From Candidatus Daviesbacteria bacterium RIFCSPLOWO2_01_FULL_39_23 (GTDB lineage Bacteria > Patescibacteriota > Microgenomatia > Daviesbacterales > UBA10151): a DNA stretch of 64,000 bases. Where the stretch lies: the NCBI GenBank assembly GCA_001776935.1, contig MFDN01000001.1:19619-83618 (forward strand), written 5' to 3'. Below the pieces are notes generated by a model that was not told where the DNA came from, ran no database searches, and was given only the letters and a program-made list of their open reading frames with translations. Both the position numbers and the translations under genes were made by a program. Numbering within the stretch: position 1 is the stretch's first letter; each line of letters opens with the position of its first letter. This document shows, piece by piece, positions 1,804 through 27,513 of the stretch.

Positions 1804-1834
1804 TGACAACGGTTCCCTATTTAAGATATGATAT
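1804..1834 (+). promoter_or_regulatory. Sigma70-like promoter for csoR operon (TTGACA 1804-1809; -10 candidates ATATGA/TATGAT ~1827-1834)
   Basis: Perfect TTGACA, 17-19 bp spacer to a TATGAT-like hexamer, immediately upstream of the palindromic operator and csoR ATG. Confidence 0.45.
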
Positions 1835-1850
1835 CCCCCTAGGGGGGACT
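1831..1850. promoter_or_regulatory. CsoR operator-like GC-rich palindrome (core CCCCCTAGGGGG)
   Basis: Perfect 12-bp palindrome ccccctaggggg at ~1835-1846, flanked tccccctagggggga. Sits between the -10 region and csoR start codon, the only GC-rich dyad in an AT-rich intergenic region. Confidence 0.6.
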
Positions 1851-1858
1851 AGACAAAT

Positions 1859-2131
1859 ATGACTTACAGACCTAAAGATACTCAGGAACGTATTTTACAC
1901 AGACTTAAGATTGCCAAAGGACATTTGCAAAAAGTTATCCAAATGGTTGAATCCGGTCAATATTGCATAGACGTGATTCATCAGTCTCAGGCTATCCAGC
2001 GTGCTTTGCAGGAAGCAGATTCTGTGCTTTTGGAAAACCACCTAAAAACTTGTGTGGTGGATCATATAAAAAAAGGCGAAGCAGATTCGTCCATTCAGGA
2101 AATTATGAATGTTTTACAAAAAAGCAGATGA
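1859..2131 (+). CDS. csoR: CsoR/RcnR-family metal-sensing transcriptional repressor (copper-sensing CsoR-like)
   Basis: 90 aa. CIDVIHQSQAIQRAL...HLKTCV contains the Cys/His/Cys metal-ligand pattern of the CsoR (DUF156) family. First gene of an operon encoding CopA and CopZ. Confidence 0.8.
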   Translation: MTYRPKDTQERILHRLKIAKGHLQKVIQMVESGQYCIDVIHQSQAIQRALQEADSVLLENHLKTCVVDHIKKGEADSSIQEIMNVLQKSR

Positions 2132-2631
2132 ATAACAAAAAAATAATTATTGGTTTTATAATTTTTACCCTTTTAATGCTGGGGGGCGGGGTTTTTGTTT
2201 TAAGCAGTACGACTTCCGGCCCGGGTAAAATCACAGCTTCTCAAAATGCCAAAGCAGAAGTTTTGGAAAAAACTTTTGACTGGGGAAACATACCTATAAA
2301 CGGCGGCAATGCCACAAAAACTTTCATTATCAAAAATACAGGTTCTGAGATCTTGAAACTTACCGGAATTAAGACTTCCTGTACTTGCACAAAAGCGCAG
2401 GTTGAAATAGAGGGAAAAACCAGTCCCTATTTTAGCATGCATGCAACATCGGGGTGGGTCGGAGAAGTGGCGCCGGGTAAAGAGGCCCGGCTCTTGGTTA
2501 TTTTTGATCCGGCTTTTCATGGGCCAACAGGAGTCGGTTCTGTGGAAAGACTGATTTCTATTCAGACAAATGATTCTCAAAACCCTAATCTGGAATTTTC
2601 TTTAAAAGGAGTCGTGATTAAAGATCAATGA
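2128..2631 (+). CDS. DUF1573 domain protein (signal-anchored, conserved TSCTCT motif)
   Basis: MNNKKIIIGFIIFTLLMLGG signal/TM then FIIKNTGSEILKLTGIKTSCTCTKAQ, matching the DUF1573 consensus (FxFxNTG...SCGCT). ATGA overlap with csoR stop. The longer ORF-track start at 1963 overlaps csoR out of frame and is rejected. Confidence 0.6.
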   Translation: MNNKKIIIGFIIFTLLMLGGGVFVLSSTTSGPGKITASQNAKAEVLEKTFDWGNIPINGGNATKTFIIKNTGSEILKLTGIKTSCTCTKAQVEIEGKTSPYFSMHATSGWVGEVAPGKEARLLVIFDPAFHGPTGVGSVERLISIQTNDSQNPNLEFSLKGVVIKDQ

Positions 2632-3557
2632 AAAAAATTAAGAAAATACTGGCAAAAGCGGTTCCTTTATGGATGGTGATTTTAATTACTATAAATTCCA
2701 CCATGATTATGGGTATTGCACAGTATTATTTAATGAGAGCAGAGCTTCGCAGGAATTTAAGCGAGCTTGCAAAAACAACAAAGAGTCCGGAAGATTTAGT
2801 GACAATTCTAAAACAGGAAGTTCTGCCGCAGGATGGTTATACGACTTCTTTAAAATGGAAAGATTTGGGAAAACAATTGGTAGAATCAGGAGCCATTGAT
2901 AAGAAAAAATATGAAGAAATTTTTACTTCTACCTCAGATGGAGCGGACCATATGAAATATCTTAATGAAGCCTCAGAAGATAATATCAGAATAGATGAGA
3001 AAAATTCCCGCTTCATGGTTAACACTTTTTGGGCTTTGGGTTTGGTACAAAAAAGCAAAGTTTTAGATGAAGGGCCGATGAAAACCGGCGGCACGCCGAC
3101 AGAAAATTTTGCCTCAACAGGAGGGTGGACTTTAGGGGCAAAACCTGTAATGGAAATTTATTCATCCAGGGAATTACTGCCCCTGAATTCTTTTCAGCAG
3201 GATTTGGTGAAAAAGATTGCTGAGAATGTTTTCCGTCCCTGTTGCGGCAACTCCACAGCCTTTCCTGATTGTAACCACGGCATGGCTGCTTTGGGTTATA
3301 TAGAGTGGGCAATCTATAACGGTCTTCCTGAGGAGCAAATTTACAAAGACCTGTTAGCTTTTAATGTTTTCTGGTTTCCGCAAAATTATGTGGAAATGGC
3401 AGTGTACTTTGATAAAAACGGCACAAAATGGAAAAATGTTGACCCGAAACTGGCTTTAGGCAGCGAGTACTCGTCCGCTCAGGGAGCGCAGCGTATTAAA
3501 CAATCTGTTCAAAGCGTACCCGGTTTGCAGATTCAGGGAGGGGGCTGCGGGGTATGA
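2628..3557 (+). CDS. Hypothetical membrane-anchored protein with Cys cluster (CCGNSTAFPDCNHG)
   Basis: 309 aa, N-terminal TM helix, ATGA overlap with the upstream gene, ends GGGCGV. No recognisable family. Confidence 0.5.
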   Translation: MKKIKKILAKAVPLWMVILITINSTMIMGIAQYYLMRAELRRNLSELAKTTKSPEDLVTILKQEVLPQDGYTTSLKWKDLGKQLVESGAIDKKKYEEIFTSTSDGADHMKYLNEASEDNIRIDEKNSRFMVNTFWALGLVQKSKVLDEGPMKTGGTPTENFASTGGWTLGAKPVMEIYSSRELLPLNSFQQDLVKKIAENVFRPCCGNSTAFPDCNHGMAALGYIEWAIYNGLPEEQIYKDLLAFNVFWFPQNYVEMAVYFDKNGTKWKNVDPKLALGSEYSSAQGAQRIKQSVQSVPGLQIQGGGCGV

Positions 3558-3561
3558 AGAA

Positions 3562-3600
3562 AGTTCAAAGTTCAAAGTGTAAAGTGTAAAGTGTAAAGTT
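3562..3600. repeat. Tandem heptamer repeat (AGTTCAA x2, AGTGTAA x3, partial)
   Basis: agttcaa agttcaa agtgtaa agtgtaa agtgtaa agtt, lying between the stop of the 2628-3557 gene and the start of the 3618 gene. Confidence 0.8.
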
Positions 3601-3617
3601 ATGAGATATAAGGTTTT

Positions 3618-4454
3618 ATGGAAAATGTACTTTTTCAAACATCTCTTATAGCTGCGTTTGTGGCCGGGATGGTGGCCCTTTTTGCTCCCTGCTGTATTAC
3701 TTTTTTACTGCCTGCTTATTTAGGCAGTGTTTTTAAGGAAAAGGAAAAAGTAATTCTAATGACTTTGGTTTTTGGTGCAGGGATTTTTACGGTGCTTCTG
3801 CCTGCAGTTTTAGGGGTGGCTTTTATTTCCAAATTTTTATTCCGGTACCATGATTTAATTTATTTTATCGGCGGTTTTGTAATGCTTATTGTGGCTTTAA
3901 CTACTTTTTTAGGTTTAAAAATGCCTATGCCTAATTTACCCGGGGCTAACATCGGCAAGAGGACAGATGTGGTATCAATTTTTACGCTTGGGATGGTGTC
4001 AGGTGTTACCAGCGCCTGCTGTGCTCCGGTTTTGATTGGAATTATGACTTTAACATTCCTGTCCCCTACTTTTTTCGGGGCTTTATTGGTAGGCGGTATG
4101 TATGTTTTAGGAATGGTGATTCCCCTGCTTTTGATTGCTGTTTTTCTGGCTGGTAAAATGCCGAAATTTTCTGTTTTAAGAAAACCTATTTTTTCTCTGA
4201 ATTTATTAGGGAAGACCTATTCGGTTATTCTTAGTAATTTAATTGCCTCGGCAATATTTTTATTTACCGGACTTTTGATTTTGGGCTTAACAATTACCGG
4301 TAAACTTTCGGCAGAGAATATGGATGAGTTTACTAAGATTATCACTAGTGCCTTGAGCAGTGCCAACAATGCGTTTGGTAATAATATTTTATTAAACATT
4401 TTGTTTGTGGGTACACTGGGGCTATTTATTTATTGGATATCCAAAAAAGTGTAG
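3618..4454 (+). CDS. CcdA/DsbD-transmembrane-domain-like thiol:disulfide membrane protein with di-cysteine motifs
   Basis: FVAGMVALFAPCCITFLLPAYLGSV resembles the CcdA TM1 motif (AGxxSFxSPCxLPLxPxYL). A second motif GVTSACCAPVLIGIM resembles CcdA TM4 (PCxxP). Multiple TM helices. Confidence 0.5.
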   Translation: MENVLFQTSLIAAFVAGMVALFAPCCITFLLPAYLGSVFKEKEKVILMTLVFGAGIFTVLLPAVLGVAFISKFLFRYHDLIYFIGGFVMLIVALTTFLGLKMPMPNLPGANIGKRTDVVSIFTLGMVSGVTSACCAPVLIGIMTLTFLSPTFFGALLVGGMYVLGMVIPLLLIAVFLAGKMPKFSVLRKPIFSLNLLGKTYSVILSNLIASAIFLFTGLLILGLTITGKLSAENMDEFTKIITSALSSANNAFGNNILLNILFVGTLGLFIYWISKKV

Positions 4455-4482
4455 TATATATCCTGAGGGGGTGATAATCACT

Positions 4483-4611
4483 ATGATGGGTTGGGGAGGT
4501 TATGGCTACGGCATGATGAATTCAGGATTTGGCATACTTTTTTCGTTAGTCGTATTATTGGATCTGATTCTTTTAGGAGTTTGGCTTTGGAAGCAGATTC
4601 AGAAAAAATGA
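4483..4611 (+). CDS. Small Gly/Tyr-rich single-TM membrane protein (42 aa)
   Basis: MMGWGGYGYGMMNSGFGILFSLVVLLDLILLGVWLWKQIQKK. Strong SD gagggggtg 9 nt upstream of ATG. ORF track 4405..4611 trimmed to the SD-supported start. Confidence 0.45.
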   Translation: MMGWGGYGYGMMNSGFGILFSLVVLLDLILLGVWLWKQIQKK

Positions 4612-4633
4612 TTCTTGGAAAGGGGTGATAAAA

Positions 4634-4903
4634 ATGCTGAATGCGAAAGCTTTTGCTAACGCCGCATCGTTGGTGATGGCAGTATGGGTTGTGGGCTGCG
4701 CTTTGCTGGCATATGTAATGCCTGATTTACTTTTTTCTATCTCGCAGTCCTGGACTCATACTATAAATCTCGGGGCAGTCAGAGCGCCGTTTAATCCCGG
4801 TTTGGGATCGCTAATTCTTGGTTTTGTCAGTGCGGTGGGATTGACCTGGGTAACAACTTACGGGACAGTTGCCCTTTACAATAAATTTGCAAAGAAAGGT
4901 TAG
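4634..4903 (+). CDS. Small hypothetical membrane protein (89 aa)
   Basis: MLNAKAFANAASLVMAVWVVGCALLAYV..., two predicted TM helices. SD aaggggtg 7 nt upstream of ATG. Confidence 0.45.
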   Translation: MLNAKAFANAASLVMAVWVVGCALLAYVMPDLLFSISQSWTHTINLGAVRAPFNPGLGSLILGFVSAVGLTWVTTYGTVALYNKFAKKG

Positions 4904-4909
4904 AGAGCA

Positions 4910-5335
4910 ATGAGAAAGGCTGTTGTTTACGGAATTTTGGCAGGCGCGGGACTGCTCGTTCTATATCTTTTAGTGATGGGTTTGGCATCAGGGTCATGGG
5001 ATTACACTGCGAGACAGCTGATCAATTTTAAGTTTTGGATTGCTGCGCTGGTTTTGGGGTTTGGTATTCAGGTTGGGCTGTTTAGCTATCTTAGGAATTG
5101 CCGTGAAGAAACTGCAGCAGGTAAAAGGACAGTTGCAGCCGGAGCAGGTACATCTACTGTGGCGATGCTGGCATGTTGCGCCCATCACATAAGCGATGTT
5201 TTGCCTTTTTTGGGCTTGTCAGTATTAAGCTTGACACTTAGCAAATATCAGGCGTGGTTTTTGGGTTTGGGTGTTGCGTCAAACCTAGTTGGGATATTTT
5301 TGATGCTACAACAAATTAGGAGAATGAAAAAATGA
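4910..5335 (+). CDS. Hypothetical integral membrane protein with ACCAHH motif
   Basis: 141 aa, 3-4 TM helices, MLACCAHHISDVLPF in a TM segment. Located inside the copper operon. Confidence 0.45.
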   Translation: MRKAVVYGILAGAGLLVLYLLVMGLASGSWDYTARQLINFKFWIAALVLGFGIQVGLFSYLRNCREETAAGKRTVAAGAGTSTVAMLACCAHHISDVLPFLGLSVLSLTLSKYQAWFLGLGVASNLVGIFLMLQQIRRMKK

Positions 5336-5763
5336 ATAAATTGGGAATAGTTTTAATATTAACAATGGTTTTTTTAACAGCCTCATGGGTATGGATGGTA
5401 AGCGGGTCAAAACAGGATCCTGCGCCTTCAAAAATTCCCATGACTTTAAGCAGTCAAAGCGATGAGAAAGGAGATGTCGCTGTGAAAGTTACACCGATTT
5501 CTCTAGAGCCGGGTAAACAAGCAAAATTTGAAGTGGTTTTGGATACTCATTCAGTAGAGCTAATTTATCATATGGTTAAGATTTCCAGCTTAAGCGATAA
5601 TCAAGGCAATGCATTGAATCCAGTTTCTTGGAGCGGTGGATTAGGTGGCCATCATTTAAAGGGCGAACTTGTTTTTCCTCCTCTTAAGATGGATGCTAAA
5701 TCAATAGAGCTTTTTATTTCTGGTATTGATGGTTTTGACAGAAGTTTTAGCTGGAATATATAA
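5332..5763 (+). CDS. Hypothetical secreted/periplasmic protein (signal anchor, GGHH motif)
   Basis: MNKLGIVLILTMVFLTASWVWM signal. Beta-rich sequence with LGGHHLKGEL. ATGA overlap with the upstream gene. Confidence 0.4.
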   Translation: MNKLGIVLILTMVFLTASWVWMVSGSKQDPAPSKIPMTLSSQSDEKGDVAVKVTPISLEPGKQAKFEVVLDTHSVELIYHMVKISSLSDNQGNALNPVSWSGGLGGHHLKGELVFPPLKMDAKSIELFISGIDGFDRSFSWNI

Positions 5764-5781
5764 AGGAGGATACCGAAGCAG

Positions 5782-6141
5782 ATGAGTATAGATAAAATAT
5801 TAGTTGCTTTTTTTGGTCTTTTCGGGATAGCTTTTACTTTTTGGTTTTTTTTGATGAAAAAAGAAAAAGAGGTGGAAGTAAGCGGGGAAATAGATATAAC
5901 AGTTTCCGGTGGCTATTCTCCGGAGGTAATTTCCGTTCCTGTTGGTAAAACTACCAGAATGAATTTTTTCCGGACAGACCCGACAGATTGTTTGTCCGAG
6001 GTCGTGCTTCCTGATTTTAAAATCCGAAAAGAGCTGCCTTTAAATAAAAAAATCAGCGTGGAAATAACTCCGAAAAAAACAGGGGAATTTGGATACACTT
6101 GCGGCATGAATATGTATCATGGAAAAATAATAGTTAAATAA
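5782..6141 (+). CDS. Cupredoxin-like (Cupredoxin_1-type) small membrane-anchored protein, probable Cu-binding
   Basis: N-terminal TM then [17 protein letters not shown]...[19 protein letters not shown] (C-terminal Cys/Met/His ligand cluster as in cupredoxin folds). SD aaggagga upstream. Immediately precedes copA. Confidence 0.5.
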
Positions 6142-6142
6142 T

Positions 6143-8383
6143 ATGGCAGAAAATAAGAAAACATTCAAAATAAAAGGCATGCATTGCGCTTCATGCATAA
6201 GGGTAATCGAAAGCTCTATTAAAAAGATTCCCGGAATATCCGATGCTTCAGTTAGTTTAGTGACAGAAAAAGCAACAGTAGCGTTTGATCCCAAAAGGGT
6301 AAATGATGAACAAGTTATGTCTGCTGTTTCCAGGGTAGGTTATAAAGCCTTTTTGGAGGAGGAAGGGGAATCGGAAGAAAAAGAAAAAGAAGAAAAGCAA
6401 AAAGAACTTTCTGCCCTTAAAAGAAAAGCTTTTATCAGTTTGTTTTTGGCATTTTTAATTGTTTGGGGAAGTTTTCCTTACATTGACCAATTTGCTCCAT
6501 TTATCTTAAAAAACTTCTGGGTGCAACTTATTTTAGCTTTGCCTGTGCAGTTTTGGGCAGGACTCATGTTTTATAAAGCAACAATTCCCGCTCTGCGCCA
6601 CCGCACTGCCAATATGGATACTTTAATCACCATCGGAACAACTGCGGCTTTTGGGTATTCGGTAGTCGCTACAGTTTTTCCGCAGATTATTGAAAGCGCA
6701 GGCATTGAGCCGATGCCTTATTTTGATGTATCGGCAGTAATTATCGGTTTAATTTTGCTGGGCAGATATTTTGAAGCAAAAGCCAAAGCAGGTACCTCAG
6801 AGGCAATTAAAAAGTTAATCGGATTGCAGGCTAAAACTGCCAGGGTTTTAAAAAACGGTAAAGAGGAAGATATAGCAATTGATCAGGTTGTGATTGGGAA
6901 TATCATCCGGGTAAGACCAGGCGAGAAAATTCCGGTTGACGGAAAAGTAAAAGAAGGGCAATCTTCGGTAGATGAGTCAATGATTTCCGGAGAAAGTATT
7001 CCGGTGGAAAAAACAAAAGGAGACTTAGTTATCGGAGGGACGATAAATAAAACAGGAAGCTTTATTTATGAAGCAACCAAAGTGGGAAGCGATACTATGC
7101 TTGCGCAAATCATCAAGCTGGTTGCCGAAGCGCAAGCCAGCAAGGCGCCGATTCAAAGACTGGTTGACTTAATTTCTTCTTACTTTGTGCCGGTAGTTTT
7201 AATGCTTGCAATTTTTACCTTTACAGTATGGTATATCTTTGGGCCTCAGCCTGCATTTTTATTTGCCATGCTGAATTTGGTGGCGGTTTTGATTATTGCC
7301 TGTCCTTGTGCCATGGGACTTGCAACTCCAACAGCCATTATGGTGGGAGTGGGCATTGGGGCGGAACACGGGATTTTAATTAAAAACGCAGAAAGTCTGG
7401 AAATTGCCCATAAAATAAATACGGTGATTTTTGATAAAACCGGAACTTTAACAAACGGTAAACCAGTGGTAACAGACATAATTTCGACCTCGCAGGTCAA
7501 AGGCGCTGGACCTGCGAGGTCTGTGCTGCAGATTGCCTCATCAATAGAAAAAGGGTCAGAGCACTCCTTGGCTGAGGCTATTGTCCAGAAGGCAGACCAG
7601 GAGGGACTTGCCCTGAGCGCAGTCGAAGGGTTTAAGGCAGTACCGGGGCACGGAGTAGAGGGAATTATTAATAAAAAAAGGGTGATCTTTGGGAACAGGA
7701 AGTTGATGGATCGGGAAAAAATTATCTGGCGGAAGATGGAGGCAAATATTGAAAAGTTGGAATCAGAGGGTAAGACAGTTATGATGCTGGCAGTTGAAGG
7801 TGAACTTGCTGGATTGATAGCAGTTGCGGATACTTTAAAACAAACTTCCAAAAAAGCAATTGACACGCTTTCGAAGATGGGAATAGAGGCTGTGATGATT
7901 ACAGGTGATAATGAAAGGACTGCTAAAGCCATCGCAAAACAGGCAGGAATTAAAAGAGTTTTGGCAGAAGTGCTGCCTGATCAAAAAGAAGCTGAGGTAA
8001 AAAAAATTCAGGCAGAGGGTAAAGTGGTGGCTATGGTGGGGGACGGGATTAATGATGCGCCGGCCCTGGCAGCAGCCAATATAGGTATTGCTATGGGAAC
8101 CGGAACAGACGTGGCAATGGAGGCGGCGGGAATTACCCTGGTAAGTAAAGATTTAGCTTCTGTTGCCGAGGCAATTGAATTATCAAAAAAAACAATGAGA
8201 ACAATAAAGATGAATCTTGTCTGGGCTTTCGGGTATAATATAACCTTAATACCTGTGGCAATGGGAGCTCTTTATCCGGTCTTCCAGATATTGCTAAATC
8301 CCATTTTTGCCTCAGCGGCAATGGCTTTAAGTTCAATATCAGTGGTCAGCAATTCATTGCTTTTGAAAAGGACTAAACTCTAA
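6143..8383 (+). CDS. copA: Copper-translocating P1B-type ATPase
   Basis: N-terminal HMA domain GMHCASC, TM CPC motif ([13 protein letters not shown]), DKTGTLT phosphorylation motif, GDGINDAP hinge. 746 aa. Confidence 0.95.
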
Positions 8384-9427
8384 ATGGATCTTTGGCTTAT
8401 CTTTTTTACAGGACTGACAATAGGCGGCGTTTCCTGCATGGCAGTGCAGGGGGGGCTTTTGGCATCCACTATTGCTGCCCGCGAAGAAGAAGAAATAGAA
8501 GAGGGGAAAAATAGAAAACAGGGCGTTTGGCCGACTTTGTCATTTTTAATCACTAAATTCTTTGCTTATATTATTTTAGGACTTGTTTTAGGCGGGTTTG
8601 GGGCGGCTCTGCAGATTTCGGAAAGAGTGCAGGCTTTTATGCAGATTGCAGCTTCTTTATATATGCTGGCTGTTGCCATGAATTTACTGAATGTCCACCC
8701 TGTTTTTAGATATGTGATTATTCAGCCTCCCAGATTTTTAACAAGACTTGTGAGAAACCAGTCTAAAAGCAAGGATTTATTTGCACCCGCATTTCTTGGG
8801 GCAATGACTATTTTCATTCCCTGCGGAACAACACTGGCTATGGAAGCTTTGGCAATTTCCTCAGGCAGCGCAATTAAAGGCGCGGCAATTATGGGAGCTT
8901 TTGTTTTGGGTACTTCTCCCCTATTTTTTGCGTTGGGATACATAACTACCACTTTGGGTGATGCTTTCCGGGCAAGATTTTTAAAGCTGGCAGCAATATT
9001 AATAATTTACCTTGGAATGACATCCTTAAACGGGTCGCTAATTTCCCTTGGATCTCCCATTACCCTGCAGTCTTTGGCAGACGCTTCGCCTATTCAGATA
9101 AGTTTTGGCGGCGAAGAAGGTTCAGACAGCGCAGATACTGTAAATACTACTTTAGTAAACGGAGTGCAGGTTGTGGAGATTCAAGCTTTTCCTAATGGGT
9201 ACAGTCCTACTTATATTAAGATTAAAAACGGGGTGCCGACAAGAATTAATGTAACTGCTACAGGGGGTTATGGTTGCACTTCTGCTTTTGCTATTCCCGC
9301 TTTAGGCGTTAGAAAAAGATTAGCTTTAAATACAACTGTTCCTGTAGAGTTTACCCCTCAAAACAAAGGGAAGATTCTTTTTAGCTGCTCAATGGGAATG
9401 TATTCAGGAGTAATAGAGGTGATTTAA
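8384..9427 (+). CDS. Polytopic membrane protein (CcdA-like Cys-in-TM motifs) fused to C-terminal cupredoxin-like domain
   Basis: TGLTIGGVSCMAVQGGLLAS and IFIPCGTTLAMEAL in TM helices. C-terminal domain ends KGKILFSCSMGMYSGVIEVI, paralogous to the C-terminus of the 5782-6141 protein. Confidence 0.45.
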   Translation: MDLWLIFFTGLTIGGVSCMAVQGGLLASTIAAREEEEIEEGKNRKQGVWPTLSFLITKFFAYIILGLVLGGFGAALQISERVQAFMQIAASLYMLAVAMNLLNVHPVFRYVIIQPPRFLTRLVRNQSKSKDLFAPAFLGAMTIFIPCGTTLAMEALAISSGSAIKGAAIMGAFVLGTSPLFFALGYITTTLGDAFRARFLKLAAILIIYLGMTSLNGSLISLGSPITLQSLADASPIQISFGGEEGSDSADTVNTTLVNGVQVVEIQAFPNGYSPTYIKIKNGVPTRINVTATGGYGCTSAFAIPALGVRKRLALNTTVPVEFTPQNKGKILFSCSMGMYSGVIEVI

Positions 9428-9639
9428 TGATCAAAAAGAAATTTAAAATAACCGGTATGCATTGTTCGTCCTGCGCCATAACCATAGATATGGATTTGGA
9501 GGATTTGGATGGTGTAAAGATGAGCAAGACTTCTTATGCTAAGGCAGAAACTGAAATCGAATTTGACCCGGAAAAAGTTACTGATTCTAAAGTTTTGGAA
9601 ACCATCAAAAAATCCGGTTATGAGGCCAGTATACCCTAA
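9427..9639 (+). CDS. copZ: Copper chaperone CopZ (HMA domain)
   Basis: 70 aa, ITGMHCSSCAITID metal-binding MxCxxC motif. Start overlaps the stop of the upstream gene. Confidence 0.8.
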   Translation: MIKKKFKITGMHCSSCAITIDMDLEDLDGVKMSKTSYAKAETEIEFDPEKVTDSKVLETIKKSGYEASIP

Positions 9640-9640
9640 A

Positions 9641-10624
9641 ATGTTTGATTTAATATCCGTTGGTGATGCACGTATTGATAACTCTGTTCATCTGCCTAAA
9701 GCACATATTTCCTGTACCATAAATAAAGAAAGATGTGAAATCTGTTTAGCTTATGGTGGCAAGATCCCGATAGACAGCGTTAAAGTCCAACCGGCGGGAA
9801 ACAGTAACAATAATGCTGTAGCTGCAGCAAAATTGGGGTTAAAAACAGCACTCTATGCCAATATAGGGGAAGATGCCAACGGAAAAATGATTTTAGATCA
9901 TTTAAAGGCGGCTGGCGTAGATACCAGGTATATGGTGGTAAATAAAGGCATTCCAACAGAGCAGTCAATTGTTATAAATTACAACGGGGAAAGGACAATT
10001 TTGGTTTACCATCATCCCTGGGATTATACTTTGCCTGATTTGGATAAGACTAAATGGGTTTATTATTCTTCGGTTTCATTTTCATTTCCCAAGACTTCTT
10101 TGGTTCCGCAGCTTGAAAATTATATAGAAAGGATCGGGGGCAGCCTGATGTATTCACCGGGGACTCATCAGCTGAAGTTTGGAGTCAAAAAACACCCCAG
10201 GCTCTTGTCTCTAACAAGGGTGTTGATTGTTAATTATGAAGAAGCAAAAAAAATTTTGGAGATTGATGGCGGAAGAAAGATTGATATAAAAAAACTGCTT
10301 TCTTCCCTTGCGGATTTGGGGCCTAAAAATGTCGTGATTACAGACGGGAAAGAGGGATCATATGGATTTGACGGTAGTAGTTTTTTTAAAATCGGGCTTT
10401 TCCCGGCCGAATTAAAAGAAGCAACCGGCGCAGGAGATGCATATGCTACAGGGTTTTTAGCAGCTCTTTTTTATGGAAAAGATTTTTCTGAAGCTATGAG
10501 ATGGGGAGCTGCAAATTCAGCGGCAGTTGTAGAGCAATGTGGCCCGCAGGAGGGGCTGCTTTCTTATAATCAAATGCAGGAAAAATTAAATAAAAATTCC
10601 GGGATCAAAGCAGGGGAAATTTAG
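9641..10624 (+). CDS. PfkB-family carbohydrate/nucleoside kinase (ribokinase-like)
   Basis: MFDLISVGDARIDN..., NNAVAAAKLG, C-terminal TGAGDAYATGFLAAL (DTxGAGD motif). ORF-track 9536 start overlaps copZ; ATG at 9641 chosen. Confidence 0.75.
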   Translation: MFDLISVGDARIDNSVHLPKAHISCTINKERCEICLAYGGKIPIDSVKVQPAGNSNNNAVAAAKLGLKTALYANIGEDANGKMILDHLKAAGVDTRYMVVNKGIPTEQSIVINYNGERTILVYHHPWDYTLPDLDKTKWVYYSSVSFSFPKTSLVPQLENYIERIGGSLMYSPGTHQLKFGVKKHPRLLSLTRVLIVNYEEAKKILEIDGGRKIDIKKLLSSLADLGPKNVVITDGKEGSYGFDGSSFFKIGLFPAELKEATGAGDAYATGFLAALFYGKDFSEAMRWGAANSAAVVEQCGPQEGLLSYNQMQEKLNKNSGIKAGEI

Positions 10625-11343
10625 CGGACTACGACCCTTGTGCCGGGGTTTTCTGCGGTGGCACGTACAGCATTTTGATCCGGGGGAACAACCGGCCCGG
10701 CCCAGTCAAAGAGTTGGGCAACAGAAGCAAGAGGGGAATTTACACAGCCGTGGCTCATCGGGTGACCGAAATTATTATGCCAGTAGGCTCCGTGTATGGC
10801 ATAGCCCTGATGGAAAAACATATTATGTGGCACATTGGGAAGATAATAATATGTCCCCAAATCTTTTGATCCGCCGCTCATTGTTTGATTTCTGGTTTTA
10901 TACCAAATATTAAAAGATCCCTTTGGAGTAGGAGCCCAAAGGCCGGAAGAAATAGGAAATTCTATCACCAGCGTGTTGCCTTCATAAGCCCTTAATCTTT
11001 GTTCGTCTAAGGATACATCAATCCATTTTTCCTCTCCTGCTTCATTAGTGGTGCCCAGTACTGCCTGATTTTCATCGGGATTTTGAGCTAAAGACTGCGA
11101 GTAAGCGTAAGACAAAGATGTTTTTGGGTAATCAATCACCTCTCCGTTAAAAATAGCTGTATTTGCATCTTCATCAAACTTGCCGTTTTGGCTTAAGATG
11201 TTGTCAACGGTGCAGCAGGAAAGCGTGAGGTCGCCGGAGATATTCAGCTTATAAACAATGGTCCTGCGGATAGATTGAAAATTAAAAGCGATATAGGCAA
11301 TTACGGCTATTAACAATAGAAGAGGTACAAGACGGTGTAGCAT
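10621..11343 (-). CDS. L,D-transpeptidase (YkuD domain) with N-terminal TM anchor
   Basis: IHGAYWHNNFGHPMSHGCVNSPLASVAQLFDW contains the H...SHGC catalytic motif of YkuD L,D-transpeptidases. Confidence 0.75.
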   Translation of the reverse strand: MLHRLVPLLLLIAVIAYIAFNFQSIRRTIVYKLNISGDLTLSCCTVDNILSQNGKFDEDANTAIFNGEVIDYPKTSLSYAYSQSLAQNPDENQAVLGTTNEAGEEKWIDVSLDEQRLRAYEGNTLVIEFPISSGLWAPTPKGSFNIWYKTRNQTMSGGSKDLGTYYYLPNVPHNMFFHQGYAIHGAYWHNNFGHPMSHGCVNSPLASVAQLFDWAGPVVPPDQNAVRATAENPGTRVVVR

Positions 11344-13095: not shown

Positions 13096-16044
13096 CTTTT
13101 TCCCCTGAAAAATTGTGGTAATTAGTCCTAAGAAAGCAAGGGTTATTATTCCTCCGGAAACCATTAATAATCCTCCTAAAATTTGACTTGCAGGATTTAT
13201 TGTTTTTTTCTTAGTACTTAATTTTTTCTGTTCTCCTAAAATATTAGTGACATTAATTTGATCAGAAATACGAGCAGGGTTTTCAAAGTTGATTCCCAGC
13301 ACTCTTTTATTCACCTCGAAGGTGGGCTCTGACTCCTTCGAGGTGCTTGCTGTCAAGACGGATGTCGGATTATTGCTTTGGTTTGTTTCCTGAGTGGTGC
13401 CGGAGGAAGAATTATTATTGCCTGAACTGGTGCCTGTAGAGGCAGGTGTTGGCGAGGGGGTCGGTGTCGGGCTGGCTGGTACAGCTATTTCGATAATTAT
13501 GGTCTGAGGGATTTCCTCATTACCAGATTTATCAACGGCTTTTATTTGAATTGTAGTTTTGCCGGGAGCAGAAATAATAAAGGGCTCTGAATAAATTTTT
13601 ACTGTTTGGCCGTTATCTAAGCTGTATTCGATCCTCAGAATACCTGATTCTGTATCATTGCCTGTTAAAGTTATAGTTACAGGATTTGTATAGATGCCGG
13701 ATGAATCCTTGGTGCCGGAAATTTGAATGGAGGTTGTGGGTGAAGATTGATCAAAAGCATTTCCTCCTTGAATCTCGCTGGTAGGGATTATTATTTCGCT
13801 CTCCGGTTGGGCGGAGTCAGGGTAAATAGTTAGCGGTGGGGAAATATCGGACGAAGGATCAAGATCAAACTCAATTCCTCCTTTTTCATCAATAGCAATA
13901 TCTTTATAAATAGCAGTTTTTGAAATCCTGTCTTCCCTATAAGTTCGCTTTTTGATATTGGTGGTTTTTGAAGAAACAGCTTTCTTTTTGCGGGTTGCTT
14001 TGACTTTTACCTTAGCGGCTTTCTTTTTGACAAAAGCATGTTTAGTGTTGCCGGAAGTGGTACATATAACATCAGGAATATTTTCTTCTATCTCTCCTTT
14101 TTCGTTTAATCCGCAATGACGGTTTTGATCATCGTAAAGGTCTAATTCCCCGTCATCCAAAGAAATTTGTTCTCCTTCTAAAATAAACTTTTGGTCCTTA
14201 ACTTCTACAGGTAAATCGTTATCATCGTTTAAGATTGCTTTAACGGTTTGCATAGCGGTTCCATTTGTTGATACTAAATTTCCATGATTCTGTTCTACGT
14301 AATAAATTTTTGTAGCACCCGAGATGTCTAAATTATCGTTTTTTAGTGAAGCACTATATAATGGTACTGTGCCATCACCATTTATGAAGATCTCATCCCT
14401 TTTAGGGAATAAATTTATTGGCCATGTAATCCACCATGTTTCATTGATTTGACCCAAAGTCGGTTGCGCTGTGCCGACTATTCCATAAACTTTTGTGCCA
14501 TTTGTTTGGTTTAATATAGAATCCAAACTATTATGAAATTGTTCGCCAAAATTAAAGACAGACATATTGTAATTTAGATTTGAGAGAAGATTTTTGGTTT
14601 GATCAAAATTAAGAGTTCCAGTTAAGTTGTTGTTATCAATATCTTGATCATCTTTTAATGGGTATGGAAGATTCTTATCTAAATTAGTATAAAAATTATA
14701 ATATTGATTTGATGGCAAAAGTTGGAATAGTGCAGGATTATTCCGTGAGACATCTTTTACCTCACTAGCAGGTACGCCTATTGGAAAAATACCGAAAACA
14801 TTCTTTTGCAGAGCAGAACCATACATAAGCGTTTTTGTTGCACTGGTAGCTCCTAAATGGGGAACTCCCAGTTCAATTAGTTTGTTAACTTTAGAAGCTT
14901 TTTGAGCATCAGAGATATAATATCTGGCAACTAAACCGCCCATGGAATGAACAACAAGGTTTACTTGTGGCTGGCCGGATTTCTGTCTGGCATTTTCAAT
15001 TAAAGCATCTAAATCATCTTTAGTAGTTCTTACATCTTTTCTCCAGTCATAAGGAAAAACAAAGAAATTTGTTCCTTTGTCATACCCCATTTCTGTAAAA
15101 AATGGATCAATATCTGAATATCCAAATGAAGTTAATTCCCCTGTTAAGACAAGAGCTGCTTCTGAAGTTACCCCGTCTGCTTTTAACCTTAAAATATCAA
15201 AATAATCATCATTTCCTAACTTTACCGCTTCGTCTTGATTTACCCAAATCTTTTCTTCACCGCCGTATGCATGAGAATATGTTCCACCGTGTCCGTCATC
15301 CGAAGACCAAAAAATATCCTGCGAAGCTTTCATTTCAGACCCTCCGATTCCGGGAATAAAAATTACCGGCAGTCTGGGCGGATGCGAAGGAGCCAGCGCG
15401 GAAACCTTTATATTATCAAACTTCATATATGCGCCCCCGAATATTCCTGTCCAATATGATAATGTTATAGTCCCTTTTTTAATATTGGTGCCTGTGTCAG
15501 TGAAATCAAAGATAGGAGTGTTGTCTATCCAGGCTTTAATATTTTCATTGGAGACTTCGATTATGAGGTGATACCATTTGTTATTTGCAAGAGAAAAAGG
15601 CTTGATCTCTTTTAATAAAGTCTGCCCGTTTCCGTCAATCTTCCATAATATAATTTGTGGTGTGTTATGTATGCCTTTCCCGTACCTTAAATTGATTTCA
15701 TAAGAACCATTTTCTCCATATCTAAAACCTACACCCTGGTCGATTCCCAAAAAACCATTGATATCCAATTCTATGCGGTAATTATCCCATTCAGAATTGC
15801 CTGTGTTAATTCTTCCGCCCAGCGCTTTTCCTGAACTTGATCCGGCTAAGTTACCGTTATTTACCTGCCAATTACCTGATTCTATTGTCCATCCATTCAA
15901 ATTTCCGTCATCGAAATTATCAAAAAGAAGTATATCTTCTTCGGTTGCCATAACCCGGGTGCTTAAAGCCATAAAAAACCACACCGCAAGAATAAGCCCT
16001 ATTATTAGGCGCAGTGGCAATATATTATTCACCTTTGCATCCAA
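13042..16044 (-). CDS. Large secreted multidomain lipase/esterase: N-terminal ConA-like/DUF1080 lectin domain, alpha/beta-hydrolase lipase domain (GHSMGG-type), Pro/Thr-rich linker, C-terminal TM anchor
   Basis: Signal peptide. ILLFDNFDDGNLNGWTIESGNWQVNNGNLAG (DUF1080/LamG-like). VNLVVHSMGGLVARYY nucleophile elbow as in Lipase_2/PGAP1-like. PASPTPTPSPTPAS linker. C-terminal LGGLLMVSGGIITLAFLGLITTIF. Confidence 0.65.
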   Translation of the reverse strand: MDAKVNNILPLRLIIGLILAVWFFMALSTRVMATEEDILLFDNFDDGNLNGWTIESGNWQVNNGNLAGSSSGKALGGRINTGNSEWDNYRIELDINGFLGIDQGVGFRYGENGSYEINLRYGKGIHNTPQIILWKIDGNGQTLLKEIKPFSLANNKWYHLIIEVSNENIKAWIDNTPIFDFTDTGTNIKKGTITLSYWTGIFGGAYMKFDNIKVSALAPSHPPRLPVIFIPGIGGSEMKASQDIFWSSDDGHGGTYSHAYGGEEKIWVNQDEAVKLGNDDYFDILRLKADGVTSEAALVLTGELTSFGYSDIDPFFTEMGYDKGTNFFVFPYDWRKDVRTTKDDLDALIENARQKSGQPQVNLVVHSMGGLVARYYISDAQKASKVNKLIELGVPHLGATSATKTLMYGSALQKNVFGIFPIGVPASEVKDVSRNNPALFQLLPSNQYYNFYTNLDKNLPYPLKDDQDIDNNNLTGTLNFDQTKNLLSNLNYNMSVFNFGEQFHNSLDSILNQTNGTKVYGIVGTAQPTLGQINETWWITWPINLFPKRDEIFINGDGTVPLYSASLKNDNLDISGATKIYYVEQNHGNLVSTNGTAMQTVKAILNDDNDLPVEVKDQKFILEGEQISLDDGELDLYDDQNRHCGLNEKGEIEENIPDVICTTSGNTKHAFVKKKAAKVKVKATRKKKAVSSKTTNIKKRTYREDRISKTAIYKDIAIDEKGGIEFDLDPSSDISPPLTIYPDSAQPESEIIIPTSEIQGGNAFDQSSPTTSIQISGTKDSSGIYTNPVTITLTGNDTESGILRIEYSLDNGQTVKIYSEPFIISAPGKTTIQIKAVDKSGNEEIPQTIIIEIAVPASPTPTPSPTPASTGTSSGNNNSSSGTTQETNQSNNPTSVLTASTSKESEPTFEVNKRVLGINFENPARISDQINVTNILGEQKKLSTKKKTINPASQILGGLLMVSGGIITLAFLGLITTIFQGKKLFFKRRLPFVKPFPQKM
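13312..13345. repeat. 34-bp hairpin element copy A (cacctcgaagg-tgggctctgact-ccttcgaggtg), inside the 3' coding region of the lipase gene
   Basis: Perfect 11-bp stem with 12-nt loop. 33/34 identical to the copy at 16110-16143. Confidence 0.8.
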
Positions 16045-16109
16045 ATTGTTGATCGTGAAAAATCGGAGCGCAATATGGCTTTAAGGTGATTTAAGATAAC
16101 GAACTGACT

Positions 16110-16143
16110 CACCTCGAAGGTAGGCTCTGACTCCTTCGAGGTG
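16110..16143. repeat. 34-bp hairpin element copy B, in the divergent lipase/cyclophilin intergenic region
   Basis: cacctcgaaggtaggctctgactccttcgaggtg. Differs from copy A by one loop nucleotide. Confidence 0.8.
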
Positions 16144-16180
16144 TTGCAAAATAGACTTTGGGGTGGTATACATTTGAGGG

Positions 16181-16882
16181 ATGTTAACGAACCAGAAAGT
16201 TTTGTGGATGTTGCTTATACTTTTCATTATTGGAGCAGGAGTTTATCTTGCTGTCTCAAAATTTAAAAATGATGTCGGGGATTTATCAGCATCTCCTTCC
16301 CCTTCGCCTTCGGGGCTGGATTTTGTGTTAACTAAATCTCCTGAACCAACAGCGGTGTCGCAGGGCACCCAAACCCAGCAAGTCCAATCTTCTGAATTGC
16401 CATTAGCCCGCAATAAAAAACTTTCTAAATTCCCGGGAGTTTTAAAACCGGAGGATTTGCAAAATAAAAAAGCCGTTATTCAGACTGCCAAAGGGATAAT
16501 CCAGCTTAAAATTTATCCCGAAGCTTCTATGGCTGCCTCCAATTTTATGATTTTATCTGCAAATGGTTTTTACGACGGATTAAAATTTCACCGGGTGGAA
16601 GATTGGGTGGTGCAGGGCGGGGATCCTTTGGGAAACGGCACAGGCGGGCCAGGGTATCAATTTCCTGATGAGCCGGTTACGCGTTCCTATGTTAAGGGTA
16701 TAGTGGCTATGGCAAATGCAGGCCCTAATACCAACGGCAGCCAATTTTTTATCTTGAAAAAAGATACGCCTTTGCCTCCAAGCTATACGATTTTGGGGCA
16801 AATTATTTCCGGACAAGACGCAGTAGATAAACTTTCTATTGGTGATGTAATGCAGAAGGTGGTTATCCAAAATCTCCAATAG
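16181..16882 (+). CDS. Cyclophilin-type peptidyl-prolyl cis-trans isomerase with N-terminal TM anchor
   Basis: [29 protein letters not shown]...[17 protein letters not shown] (cyclophilin signature). Confidence 0.85.
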
Positions 16883-27332: not shown

Positions 27333-27439
27333 AGTAAGTGATAACTTCGTTATCAGTGAACCGCTTTTTGAGCTGGGATTCACTCTAACGAGGTAATATC
27401 TCCAGAAATTTAGTCGCAAGGATTAAATTTTGGAGCTAG

Positions 27440-27513
27440 TACCGCCAACGGGAGTTGAACCCGTGATTTTCGGAATGAGAATCCGATGTCCTAGGCCACT
27501 AGACGATGGCGGC
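27440..27513 (-). tRNA. tRNA-Glu (anticodon CTC)
   Basis: GCCGCCATCGTCTAGTGGCCTAGGACATCGGATTCTCATTCCGAAAATCACGGGTTCAACTCCCGTTGGCGGTA folds as a cloverleaf (7-bp acceptor with G1-U72, Glu-type D-loop TCGTCTAGTGG..AGGAC, anticodon loop TTCTCAT, T-loop TTCAACT). No encoded CCA. Confidence 0.8.

Follow-up and report, generated by a model that had tools for sequence, protein, structure and literature searches.

A CsoR-headed copper operon of Candidatus Daviesbacteria joins a copper-efflux arm to a conserved cysteine-rich module recurring in Patescibacteria

Copper-efflux loci of the csoR-copA-copZ type, as in Mycobacterium tuberculosis and Bacillus subtilis, combine a CsoR repressor with a C-H-C site, a GC-tract palindrome at the promoter, a P1B-1 ATPase (CopA) and an HMA chaperone (CopZ), and in the copY-cupA-copA locus of Streptococcus pneumoniae the place before copA is occupied by cupA, whose product has an N-terminal anchor and Cys/Cys-x-Met-x-Met ligands. 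Thiol chemistry of the envelope has also been connected with copper. In the copper-induced Scs system, the thiol oxidoreductase ScsC, which binds Cu(I), is primed by ScsB, a DsbD-family protein whose alpha domain is Ig-like; copper resistance in Escherichia coli needs DsbC and DsbD (PMC10907172). HMA-DsbD_2 proteins (COG2836) have been noted in the CsoR meta-regulon of Firmicutes (PMC4938975). Here we describe an operon within a 64 kb window (the whole stretch of DNA analysed, to which all coordinates refer unless a locus is named) of a contig from Candidatus Daviesbacteria, a lineage of the Candidate Phyla Radiation (CPR), that is, Patescibacteria. The CsoR/CopA/CopZ/CupA frame, the HMA-DsbD_2 proteins of CsoR regulons and the link between the DsbD family and copper tolerance were already known. 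What is new is a conserved unit formed by csoR, a DUF1573 gene and two further genes, named here G3 and G4, together with the doubled-Cys CcdA variant encoded by G4, the CcmH-like CC/CxH protein encoded by G3, a protein family represented by G7 and G8, and the wide distribution of the module in the CPR. A preliminary description of this DNA had supposed the arrangement to be undescribed as a unit; we found no description of csoR-DUF1573-G3-G4 in the searchable open-access literature, but DsbD_2 in a CsoR regulon does have the precedent given above.

The operon consists of 12 co-directional genes on the forward strand (1859-9639), numbered G1 to G12 in their order, with intergenic gaps of -4 to 61 nucleotides; eleven genes had been claimed before. 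No terminator-like hairpin was found between the operon genes, as all such matches fell within coding sequence. A sigma-70-type promoter (1803-1832, +) is formed by TTGACA at 1803-1808, an 18-nucleotide spacer and TATGAT at 1827-1832, and this combination, with 11 of 12 positions in agreement, was the top promoter-like match between positions 1600 and 10800. A GC-tract inverted repeat, ATCCCCCTAGGGGGGAC (1833-1849), adjoins the -10 hexamer on its downstream side and is predicted to be a CsoR-type operator; the window contains no other sequence that fits the operator pattern exactly, and the candidate CsoR target DNA at the operon promoter is ATATCCCCCTAGGGGGGAC. Other promoter-like sites were considered as operon boundaries and discarded: the one at 4529-4558 lies inside coding sequence, and internal sites were no commoner than in shuffled sequence. 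The proposal of a CsoR-headed copper operon with a promoter and an operator palindrome is borne out by the gene map, by Pfam and by our reading of the sequence. The profile check against Pfam confirmed the suggested DUF1573, DsbD_2 and Cupredoxin_1 (twice), and also gave Trns_repr_metal, DUF5676, HMA, E1-E2_ATPase and Hydrolase. The motifs that had been quoted for the accessory proteins (SCTCT, CCGNSTAFPDCNHG, APCC, SACCAP, ACCAHH and GGHH) were all found in the translations and, because they are invariant across their families, lie far beyond chance. G3, G4, G5, G7 and G8 matched no Pfam or NCBIfam family, even at permissive thresholds.

Conservation was followed around G3. At E≤1e-3 in a protein collection clustered at 90%, 5167 relatives of G3 were detected, every source-named one of which is called 'hypothetical', and, with each GTDB species represented by one genome, a G3 relative was detected in at least 564 species. 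Synteny was examined in the best 80 of these at least 564 species records, each with 10 kb flanks; the counts cover 81 distinct loci and only neighbours on the same strand as G3. Open reading frames (ORFs) were called in these loci and sorted with iterated hidden Markov models (HMMs) built from the window proteins, and, as many contigs end early, the neighbour counts are lower bounds. For G8, only direct matches and alignment A4 were used, since the iterated HMM drifted to DUF1573-like ORFs (91 matches). The DUF1573 gene accompanies G3 in 77 of the 81 loci, G4 in 71, csoR in at least 57, a P-type ATPase gene in 56 and the DUF5676 gene in 46. Less frequent neighbours are a CupA-like gene (35), G5 (31), a DsbD_2-cupredoxin gene (about 30), G7 (13) and G8 (11). 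The conserved core is therefore csoR-DUF1573-G3-G4, and the pair encoding the ACCAHH and GGHH proteins (G7 and G8) behaves as a variable insertion that about 13 of the 81 loci contain. The order csoR-DUF1573-G3-G4-(G5)-DUF5676-cupA-copA-DsbD2Cup-copZ recurs across Daviesbacteria. The accessory genes thus stay beside csoR and copA in relatives, the opposite of what the preliminary description had named as refuting its reading.

Named records with a G3 relative belong to the CPR lineages Daviesbacteria, Levybacteria, Curtissbacteria, Chisholmbacteria, Collierbacteria, Beckwithbacteria, Amesbacteria, Blackburnbacteria, Woesebacteria, Terrybacteria, Andersenbacteria, Wolfebacteria, WWE3 and Saccharibacteria; the named records outside the CPR are one from Anaerolineae and one from Micrarchaeota. 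Records under a generic title ('uncultured Gammaproteobacteria bacterium isolate binchicken...', for instance) were not counted as occurrence outside the CPR. Loci so titled (for example, L007, L009 and L011-L013) are Daviesbacteria-like, with 70-78% identity to G3 and identical synteny, and the organism names on these records look like placeholders or mislabels. Within Candidatus Daviesbacteria, the G3 copies of assemblies GCA_001776655.1, GCA_000995905.1 and ACD_38C are identical and the gene order is unchanged. Taken together, several hundred genomes at the species level, if not more, carry csoR-DUF1573-G3-G4; most of these are from the CPR, and in most a metal sensor is linked to the module.

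The first gene, csoR (G1, 1859-2131, +), encodes a predicted copper-sensing repressor of 90 residues, which matches PF02583 (Trns_repr_metal) with E=1.1e-22 and a score of 80.7 bits, the cut-off being 22.8. Its translation contains Cys36, His61 and Cys65 together with Tyr35 and Glu81, conserved across 64 homologues, which we take to be the Cu(I) site of M. tuberculosis CsoR in the same numbering. Persulfide or formaldehyde sensing was considered for this protein and set aside, as the C-H-C triad and the copper gene context favour Cu(I). Upstream of csoR, a ATATCCCC-N(2-4)-GGGGGATAT element was found in at least 42 of the 64 csoR matches examined. In four loci (L027, L030, L044 and L047), csoR lies downstream of G4, and there DUF1573-G3-G4 carries an operator copy of its own about 30 nucleotides upstream of DUF1573. 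In at least 10 loci without csoR (L037, L043, L045, L050, L056, L061, L063, L067, L068 and L083), a regulator composed of an ArsR-type helix-turn-helix and a C-terminal YHS domain (PF01022 and PF04945) is encoded directly upstream of DUF1573. The presence of ArsR-YHS in the csoR slot looks like a non-orthologous replacement of the metal sensor, and it sets these relatives of the operon apart from the csoR-copA-copZ type. Since the operator stands upstream of csoR, the trio has a separate operator where csoR is displaced, and ArsR-YHS takes the slot of csoR elsewhere, it is the accessory core, and not copA alone, that is tied to a metal sensor.

G2 (2128-2631, +) encodes a membrane-anchored, Ig-like DUF1573 protein of 167 residues (PF07610, E=1e-12) with one predicted N-terminal transmembrane (TM) helix and an exofacial S-C-x-C-T motif, which was found in 86 of 87 copies. 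It also matches the HYDIN/VesB Ig-like family (E=2.4e-10) and the NCBIfam OS_HP2 (seleno)protein domain (E=1e-11), a family with selenocysteine variants; a sequence search of the PDB returned nothing meaningful for it. G3 (2628-3557, +) follows with a product of 309 residues, in which an N-terminal anchor precedes an exofacial part of about 260 residues. Its signature, R-P-C205-C206-x8-C215-x-H217 and a tail cysteine, Cys307, is kept in all homologues examined, as each of the 81 has RPCC-x8-CxH and a Cys no more than four residues from its C-terminal end. Searches of Pfam and NCBIfam with G3 gave no match, and neither did searches of PDB sequences with the single sequence and with a profile; its AlphaFold 2 (AF2) model has a pLDDT of 78.6 and a pTM of 0.75.

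A relationship of the C-terminal part of G3 emerged when an alignment of G3 residues 180-270 was compared by hhalign with one of CcmH/NrfF (PF03918) consisting of the E. coli K-12 protein and eleven plasmid-borne homologues. The comparison gave a probability of 57% and P=1.1e-4, against 1.7e-3 for the best of 30 column shuffles, 0.36 for the reversed alignment and 0.008-0.5 for other operon families. The pairing sets FRPCCGNSTAFPDCNH over CcmH LRCPKCQNNS-IADSNS. In this alignment, Cys206 of G3 lies opposite the second cysteine of CxxC in CcmH, an Arg of G3 stands at the place of the first, and Cys215 falls on the conserved Ser of the CcmH DSN motif. G3 lacks the LRCxxC redox motif, having F-R-P-C-C in its place with an extra Cys at +9 and a His at +11. 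Descent of the C-terminal domain (approximately residues 185-265) from CcmH is probable but not established. A related observation comes from plasmid p1 of Cytobacillus firmus (L097, 175-672), where the encoded CcmH has HPPGC-x8-C instead of LRCxxC; its sequence suggests a Cx8C subtype of CcmH outside the CPR, with the same spacing as C206...C215 of G3.

G4 (3618-4454, +) encodes a membrane protein of 278 residues, probably a divergent member of the CcdA/DsbD family, with PCC in TM1 and ACCAP in TM4. The window protein itself has no Pfam match even at E≤10. Its relatives are named CcdA by NCBI, several of them, at 66-76% identity, match PF02683, and a profile of 37 sequences (A3) matched the Thermus thermophilus CcdA structure 5VKV with E=7.9e-7, aligning lfaPCCitfllPaYL with fLSPCV-LPLVPTYL and saCCaPvl with TPCIGPIL. 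These matches uphold the earlier recognition of a CcdA-like membrane protein with doubled TM cysteines. As the first Cys of each G4 pair aligns to a catalytic Cys of 5VKV, it appears to be the CcdA catalytic residue, the second being a symmetric addition in both pseudo-repeats. C25, C26, C134 and C135 are invariant in the G4 alignment, and the CC/CC arrangement was found in at least 63 of 74 copies. Judged by these sequence comparisons, G4 appears to be a descendant of CcdA. Its automatic annotation as a cytochrome c biogenesis protein is nevertheless misleading, given that no other cytochrome-maturation genes are present in any locus: genes for CcmF, CcmI, CcmG or c-type cytochromes were absent from the labelled or recurrent neighbours in the 81 loci, whole genomes not having been examined. 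The G3-G4 pair differs from the CcdA-CcmG-CcmH relay of cytochrome c maturation in having RPCC-x8-CxH in place of LRCxxC, in standing in loci without CcmF, CcmI and CcmG, and in being wired to a copper sensor.

The efflux arm is formed by three genes. G9 (5782-6141, +) encodes a CupA-type, membrane-anchored Cu(I) chaperone of 119 residues (PF13473, Cupredoxin_1, E=4e-23), with a TM helix at residues 6-24, and ends one nucleotide before copA. Residues 34-118 match S. pneumoniae CupA (2MRY/4F2E) with a phmmer E-value of 2.7e-23, and C70, C107, M109 and M111 align to Cys74, Cys111, Met113 and Met115 of CupA, whose roles as Cu(I) ligands have been described (PMC5646241). The CxMxM motif is kept in 34 of 38 G9 homologues and, by analogy with CupA, G9 would act on the cytoplasmic side. 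The free-standing cupredoxin-like protein of the preliminary description is thus present, but it is not atypical, being a CupA homologue with all four ligands encoded upstream of copA; likewise, the view that classical cop loci hold only csoR or copY, copA and copZ is too narrow in light of the copY-cupA-copA precedent. A type 1 blue-copper function was dismissed for G9 and for G11, as their ligands are the Cu(I) set of CupA and not His/Cys/His/Met. G10 (copA, 6143-8383, +) encodes a P1B-type Cu(I)-exporting ATPase of 746 residues, scoring 626.2 bits with TIGR01511 (cut-off 397). It has a single HMA domain at the N-terminus (GMHCASC; PF00403, E=1e-14), the E1-E2_ATPase and Hydrolase domains and the CPC, DKTGT, YN and MxxSS motifs. 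G12 (copZ, 9427-9639, +) encodes an HMA Cu(I) chaperone of 70 residues (GMHCSSC; PF00403, E=6.5e-12). This arm is a hybrid of csoR-copA-copZ and copY-cupA-copA, ordinary save for having both chaperone types. With the former it shares all the elements named at the outset, but the operon places eight further conserved genes between sensor and pump or after the pump. With the latter it shares the CupA homologue, its N-terminal anchor, its ligands and its place before copA, but here CsoR stands in for CopY, CopZ is added, the N-terminus of CopA is an HMA domain and not a CupA-like one, and a second CupA-like domain, fused to a DsbD_2 protein, is predicted to face outward.

That second domain belongs to G11 (8384-9427, +), a protein with a six-TM DsbD_2 core (PF13386, E=3.1e-32, 112.5 bits) and a C-terminal CupA-like domain (PF13473, E=1.6e-9). 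A Cys lies in TM1 and P-C-G in TM4, and the cupredoxin domain shows the CupA ligand pattern as C-S-M-G-M. A gene of this type follows copA in about 30 of the 81 loci. Some relatives have an N-terminal HMA domain and one added TM helix before the core; this added helix and the positive-inside pattern suggest that the core of G11 is oriented N-out/C-out, which would place the cupredoxin domain outside the cell. In L015 and L021, G11 relatives of about 600 residues combine an N-terminal HMA domain with a tandem CupA-like pair and a Gly/Cys-rich linker, GGGSCGSSGGCGCGGG. The DsbD_2 domain, CsoR control and the HMA domain of its relatives are features that G11 shares with the COG2836 HMA-DsbD_2 proteins (PMC4938975), but it has a C-terminal CupA-like domain instead of DUF2318, the functions of both being predictions from sequence. 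An insertion was observed next to such a gene in L006 (JACPDA010000004.1, Candidatus Daviesbacteria), where arsR and then merA (approximately 14800-16655) stand between copA and the DsbD_2-cupredoxin gene. The encoded mercuric reductase scores 498 bits against TIGR02053 (cut-off 454) and has the CVNVGC active site and an SCCI C-terminus; no merT or merP accompanies this insertion. Shorter merA-like ORFs, possibly fragments, are found in the operon at L030 and L047.

Between the core and cupA lie four smaller genes. G5 (4483-4611, +) encodes 42 residues with a single TM helix and a Met/Gly-rich N-terminus, MMGWGGYGYGMM; 31-34 related loci have kept it, and the annotation of some assemblies includes it as a gene. 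G6 (4634-4903, +) encodes a DUF5676 protein of 89 residues (PF18926, E=3.8e-14) with two TM helices, a conserved Cys22 and W-x-H. Two tiny membrane proteins had been announced and are indeed encoded, but their order had been misplaced, as both precede the ACCAHH protein. The latter, G7 (4910-5335, +), has 141 residues, four TM helices and an invariant M-x2-C-C-x-H-H-x2-D motif in TM3. A HMMER search gave 795 representative clusters of G7 relatives, and in the best 150 of these 795 the CCxHH motif is present in 144, a G8 domain is fused C-terminally through one extra TM helix in 44, and an N-terminal metal-binding extension occurs in about 13. Pfam identified the N-terminal domains in a subset of 32 sequences as HMA (7), HMBD (3), YHS (2) and TRASH (2). 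G8 (5332-5763, +) is a membrane-anchored exofacial beta-sandwich of 143 residues with invariant D71-T-H73-S and G106-H107-H108 (AF2 model, pLDDT 85.8), and it resembles CrdA-like copper-binding beta-sandwiches. It has 22 detectable relatives, one of them with a long Met-rich N-terminus. The fusions of G7 to G8 and to metal-binding domains in other organisms indicate that G7 and G8 are one functional unit, clearly connected with metals. In five loci (L015, L032, L034, L046 and L060), and not in the window, the operon contains a further small membrane protein, of the DUF2933 family, which begins with MDCC and carries C-P-L-x-H-x-x-M-M; its gene lies between G4 and the gene for DUF5676, G7 or an HMA-DsbD_2 protein.

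Genes for VKOR and DsbA stand as a pair about 2 kb upstream of csoR, a short way past the left border of the window (L001, 6123-7188). Because this pair stands beside the operon, the Daviesbacteria host appears to have an extracytoplasmic disulfide-forming system, which copper could disturb.

Building on the observed gene content, homologies, synteny and operator conservation, we propose that the operon is one CsoR-repressed unit in which cytoplasmic copper efflux is coupled with a thiol-based envelope module resembling Scs, a reading to which we assign a probability of about one half. Extracytoplasmic handling of thiols or of copper is the best reading of the accessory genes; from the homologies we infer the electron flow, the Cu(I) binding by G2, G3 and G8 and the direction of every transfer. 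At the regulatory level, the C-H-C site and the position of the palindrome predict that Cu(I) would free CsoR from the promoter-overlapping operator. In the efflux layer, which the sequences support well, CupA (G9) and CopZ (G12) would pass cytoplasmic Cu(I) to CopA (G10), which would export it. G4 may serve as a CcdA-type thiol relay, bringing cytoplasmic reducing equivalents across the membrane to its outer side. There, G2, with its Ig-like fold and exofacial CxC, would be comparable to the alpha domain of DsbD or ScsB in fold and placement, and G3 would be an exofacial protein with a remodelled CcmH domain. A redox ancestry of this core is supported by the CcdA match of G4, by the Ig-like CxC protein G2 and its match to a family with selenocysteine variants, by DsbA-like CPFC genes in or next to the operon in 8 loci, and by the VKOR-DsbA pair upstream. 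Reductant delivered by G4 would hold the cysteines of G2 and G3 reduced, and these could capture Cu(I), preventing the copper-driven mis-oxidation of surface proteins that depend on DsbA and VKOR. G7 and G8, as a CCxHH membrane protein and a His-rich beta-sandwich, would extend a chain of soft ligands from the inside through the membrane to the outside, as G11 would with its DsbD_2 core and outward CupA-like domain, and both probably receive or hold the Cu(I) expelled by CopA. Such a module hints at how CPR bacteria with small genomes and a VKOR/DsbA pair might shield their surface thiols from copper.

Like Scs and DsbD-DsbC, a copper-induced envelope thiol system whose thiol proteins also bind Cu(I), the operon pairs a DsbD/CcdA-family protein with an Ig-like, Cys-bearing exofacial domain. 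The resemblance to Scs is functional only. G4 lacks the fused soluble alpha and gamma domains of ScsB, the Ig-like CxC domain is here encoded on its own as DUF1573, its partner resembles CcmH, each membrane cysteine is followed by a second one, the regulator is CsoR and not CpxR, and the host belongs to the CPR. Several points weigh against the Scs-like reading. No thioredoxin-fold match was obtained among the 12 operon proteins in Pfam or NCBIfam, a partner that canonical CcdA, DsbD and ScsB all use and that Scs has. The catalytic Cys of G4 are doubled and CC...CxH replaces CxxC in G3, both of which a redox model leaves unexplained, and motifs of the CC type are better known from soft-metal binding (MerT, MerF, the MerA tail and Cox17) than from thiol-disulfide exchange. 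The HMA fusions of G7 and of DsbD_2 relatives fit the passage of metal better than that of electrons. Moreover, the link of G3 to CcmH is structural and weak at the sequence level, and Foldseek with the full-length G3 model gave no significant match. If the Scs-like reading is true, copper-linked relays of envelope reductant arose independently far outside Proteobacteria.

The same cysteines might instead carry the metal itself. On this tentative proposal, Cu(I), with perhaps Hg(II) or Ag(I) as well, would cross the membrane through G4, G7 and G11 by thiolate exchange, in the manner of MerT and MerF, with G2, G3, G8 and the cupredoxin domain of G11 as exofacial donors or acceptors, and the CcdA/DsbD scaffold would have been turned into a metal transporter; the wider LysE/DsbD superfamily does include metal-ion transporters. 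It draws on the adjacent, invariant cysteines that each of the two G4 pseudo-repeats contains, on the CC...CxH of G3 with its flexible Cys-bearing tail, and on the CCxHH in a predicted TM helix of G7, whose relatives combine an outward His-rich G8 domain with HMA, YHS, TRASH or HMBD at the N-terminus, presumably in the cytoplasm. DsbD_2 relatives similarly have HMA domains inside and CupA-like domains outside, and, with merA but no merT or merP in L006, import of Hg(II) must fall to another membrane protein in that organism. Direct metal passage explains the doubled Cys better than redox does, and so it does the CxH and C-terminal Cys of G3, the fusions to HMA and the insertion of merA. However, CcdA and CcmH, the only characterised homologues of G4 and of the G3 domain, transfer electrons and not metals, transport has no evident direction, import would be futile for copper, export would duplicate CopA, and no energy-coupling element is evident. 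Nor is there detectable homology to MerT, MerF or MerC. The Mer proteins (MerT, MerF, MerP and the C-terminal CC of MerA) resemble the operon in their vicinal Cys in TM helices or flexible tails and in an exofacial Cys protein, but they differ in membrane fold, and the metal sensed here is copper. Membership of G4 and G7 in Mer families was rejected, as no Mer match was obtained (NCBIfam E≤0.1, Pfam E≤10) and only the vicinal-Cys motif is common to both. It is less likely than not, though far from negligible, that G4, G11 and G7 constitute a new class of thiolate-relay transporters for Cu(I) and soft metals, served by the CcmH-derived domain of G3 (with a CC/CxH/C site), the Ig-like CxC protein G2 and the His-triad beta-sandwich G8 as new exofacial metallochaperones; relay proteins of cytochrome c maturation would then have been converted into metal machinery near-universal in Microgenomates-type CPR bacteria. 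If metal passage is true, it would represent a new transporter principle in copper and mercury biology.

The merA insertion could further suggest a general island of soft-metal resistance (Hg, Ag and Au), in which the Cys module serves mainly against Hg(II) and Ag(I), since merA and arsR stand in the L006 operon and merA-like ORFs in two more loci; vicinal thiols bind Hg(II), Ag(I) and Cu(I), and P1B-1 ATPases also export Ag(I). We consider this improbable, as merA is absent from the window and present in just 3 of 81 loci, the C-H-C site of the regulator is of the type that binds Cu(I), its operator is that of a CsoR, and CupA, CopZ and CopA are copper proteins. Still less likely is a role in copper acquisition or cuproprotein maturation, with G2, G3 and G8 as chaperones of the Cox11, Sco or PCuAC type. 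Cox11, too, is anchored in the membrane, Ig-like and equipped with a CxC site for Cu(I), a resemblance only, and G8 is similar to CrdA-like copper-binding beta-sandwiches, but CsoR logic turns genes on at copper excess, the module is linked to efflux genes, and no cuproenzyme gene recurs in the 81 loci. The derivation of G4 and G3 from cytochrome c maturation families could also mean that the accessory genes have housekeeping tasks in the envelope or in disulfide chemistry, happen to lie between csoR and copA, and play no part in copper handling. This we regard as very improbable: synteny is kept across many CPR lineages, no ccm or other cytochrome-maturation genes recur among the neighbours, and mere hitch-hiking is contradicted by the operator and regulator data, the genes having their own CsoR operator when apart from csoR and an ArsR-YHS sensor in its stead elsewhere.

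G3, G7 and G8 stand outside any curated family, and an assignment to copper or soft-metal defence would give thousands of 'hypothetical' proteins a testable function and correct the misleading annotation of G4.

Other genes were observed in or around the operon. DsbA-like genes with a CPFC motif lie inside or beside it in 8 of 81 loci, and a DoxX gene lies near it in 6 loci. Downstream, a gene for a PfkB-family sugar kinase (9641-10624) begins 2 nucleotides past the copZ stop, a position kept in 16 related loci, and a weak terminator-like hairpin follows it at 10636. This kinase gene, which has no obvious link to copper, may be co-transcribed with the operon. Across the 64 kb window, the sole Rfam/ARAGORN match is a tRNA-Glu (CTC) at 27439-27513 on the reverse strand.

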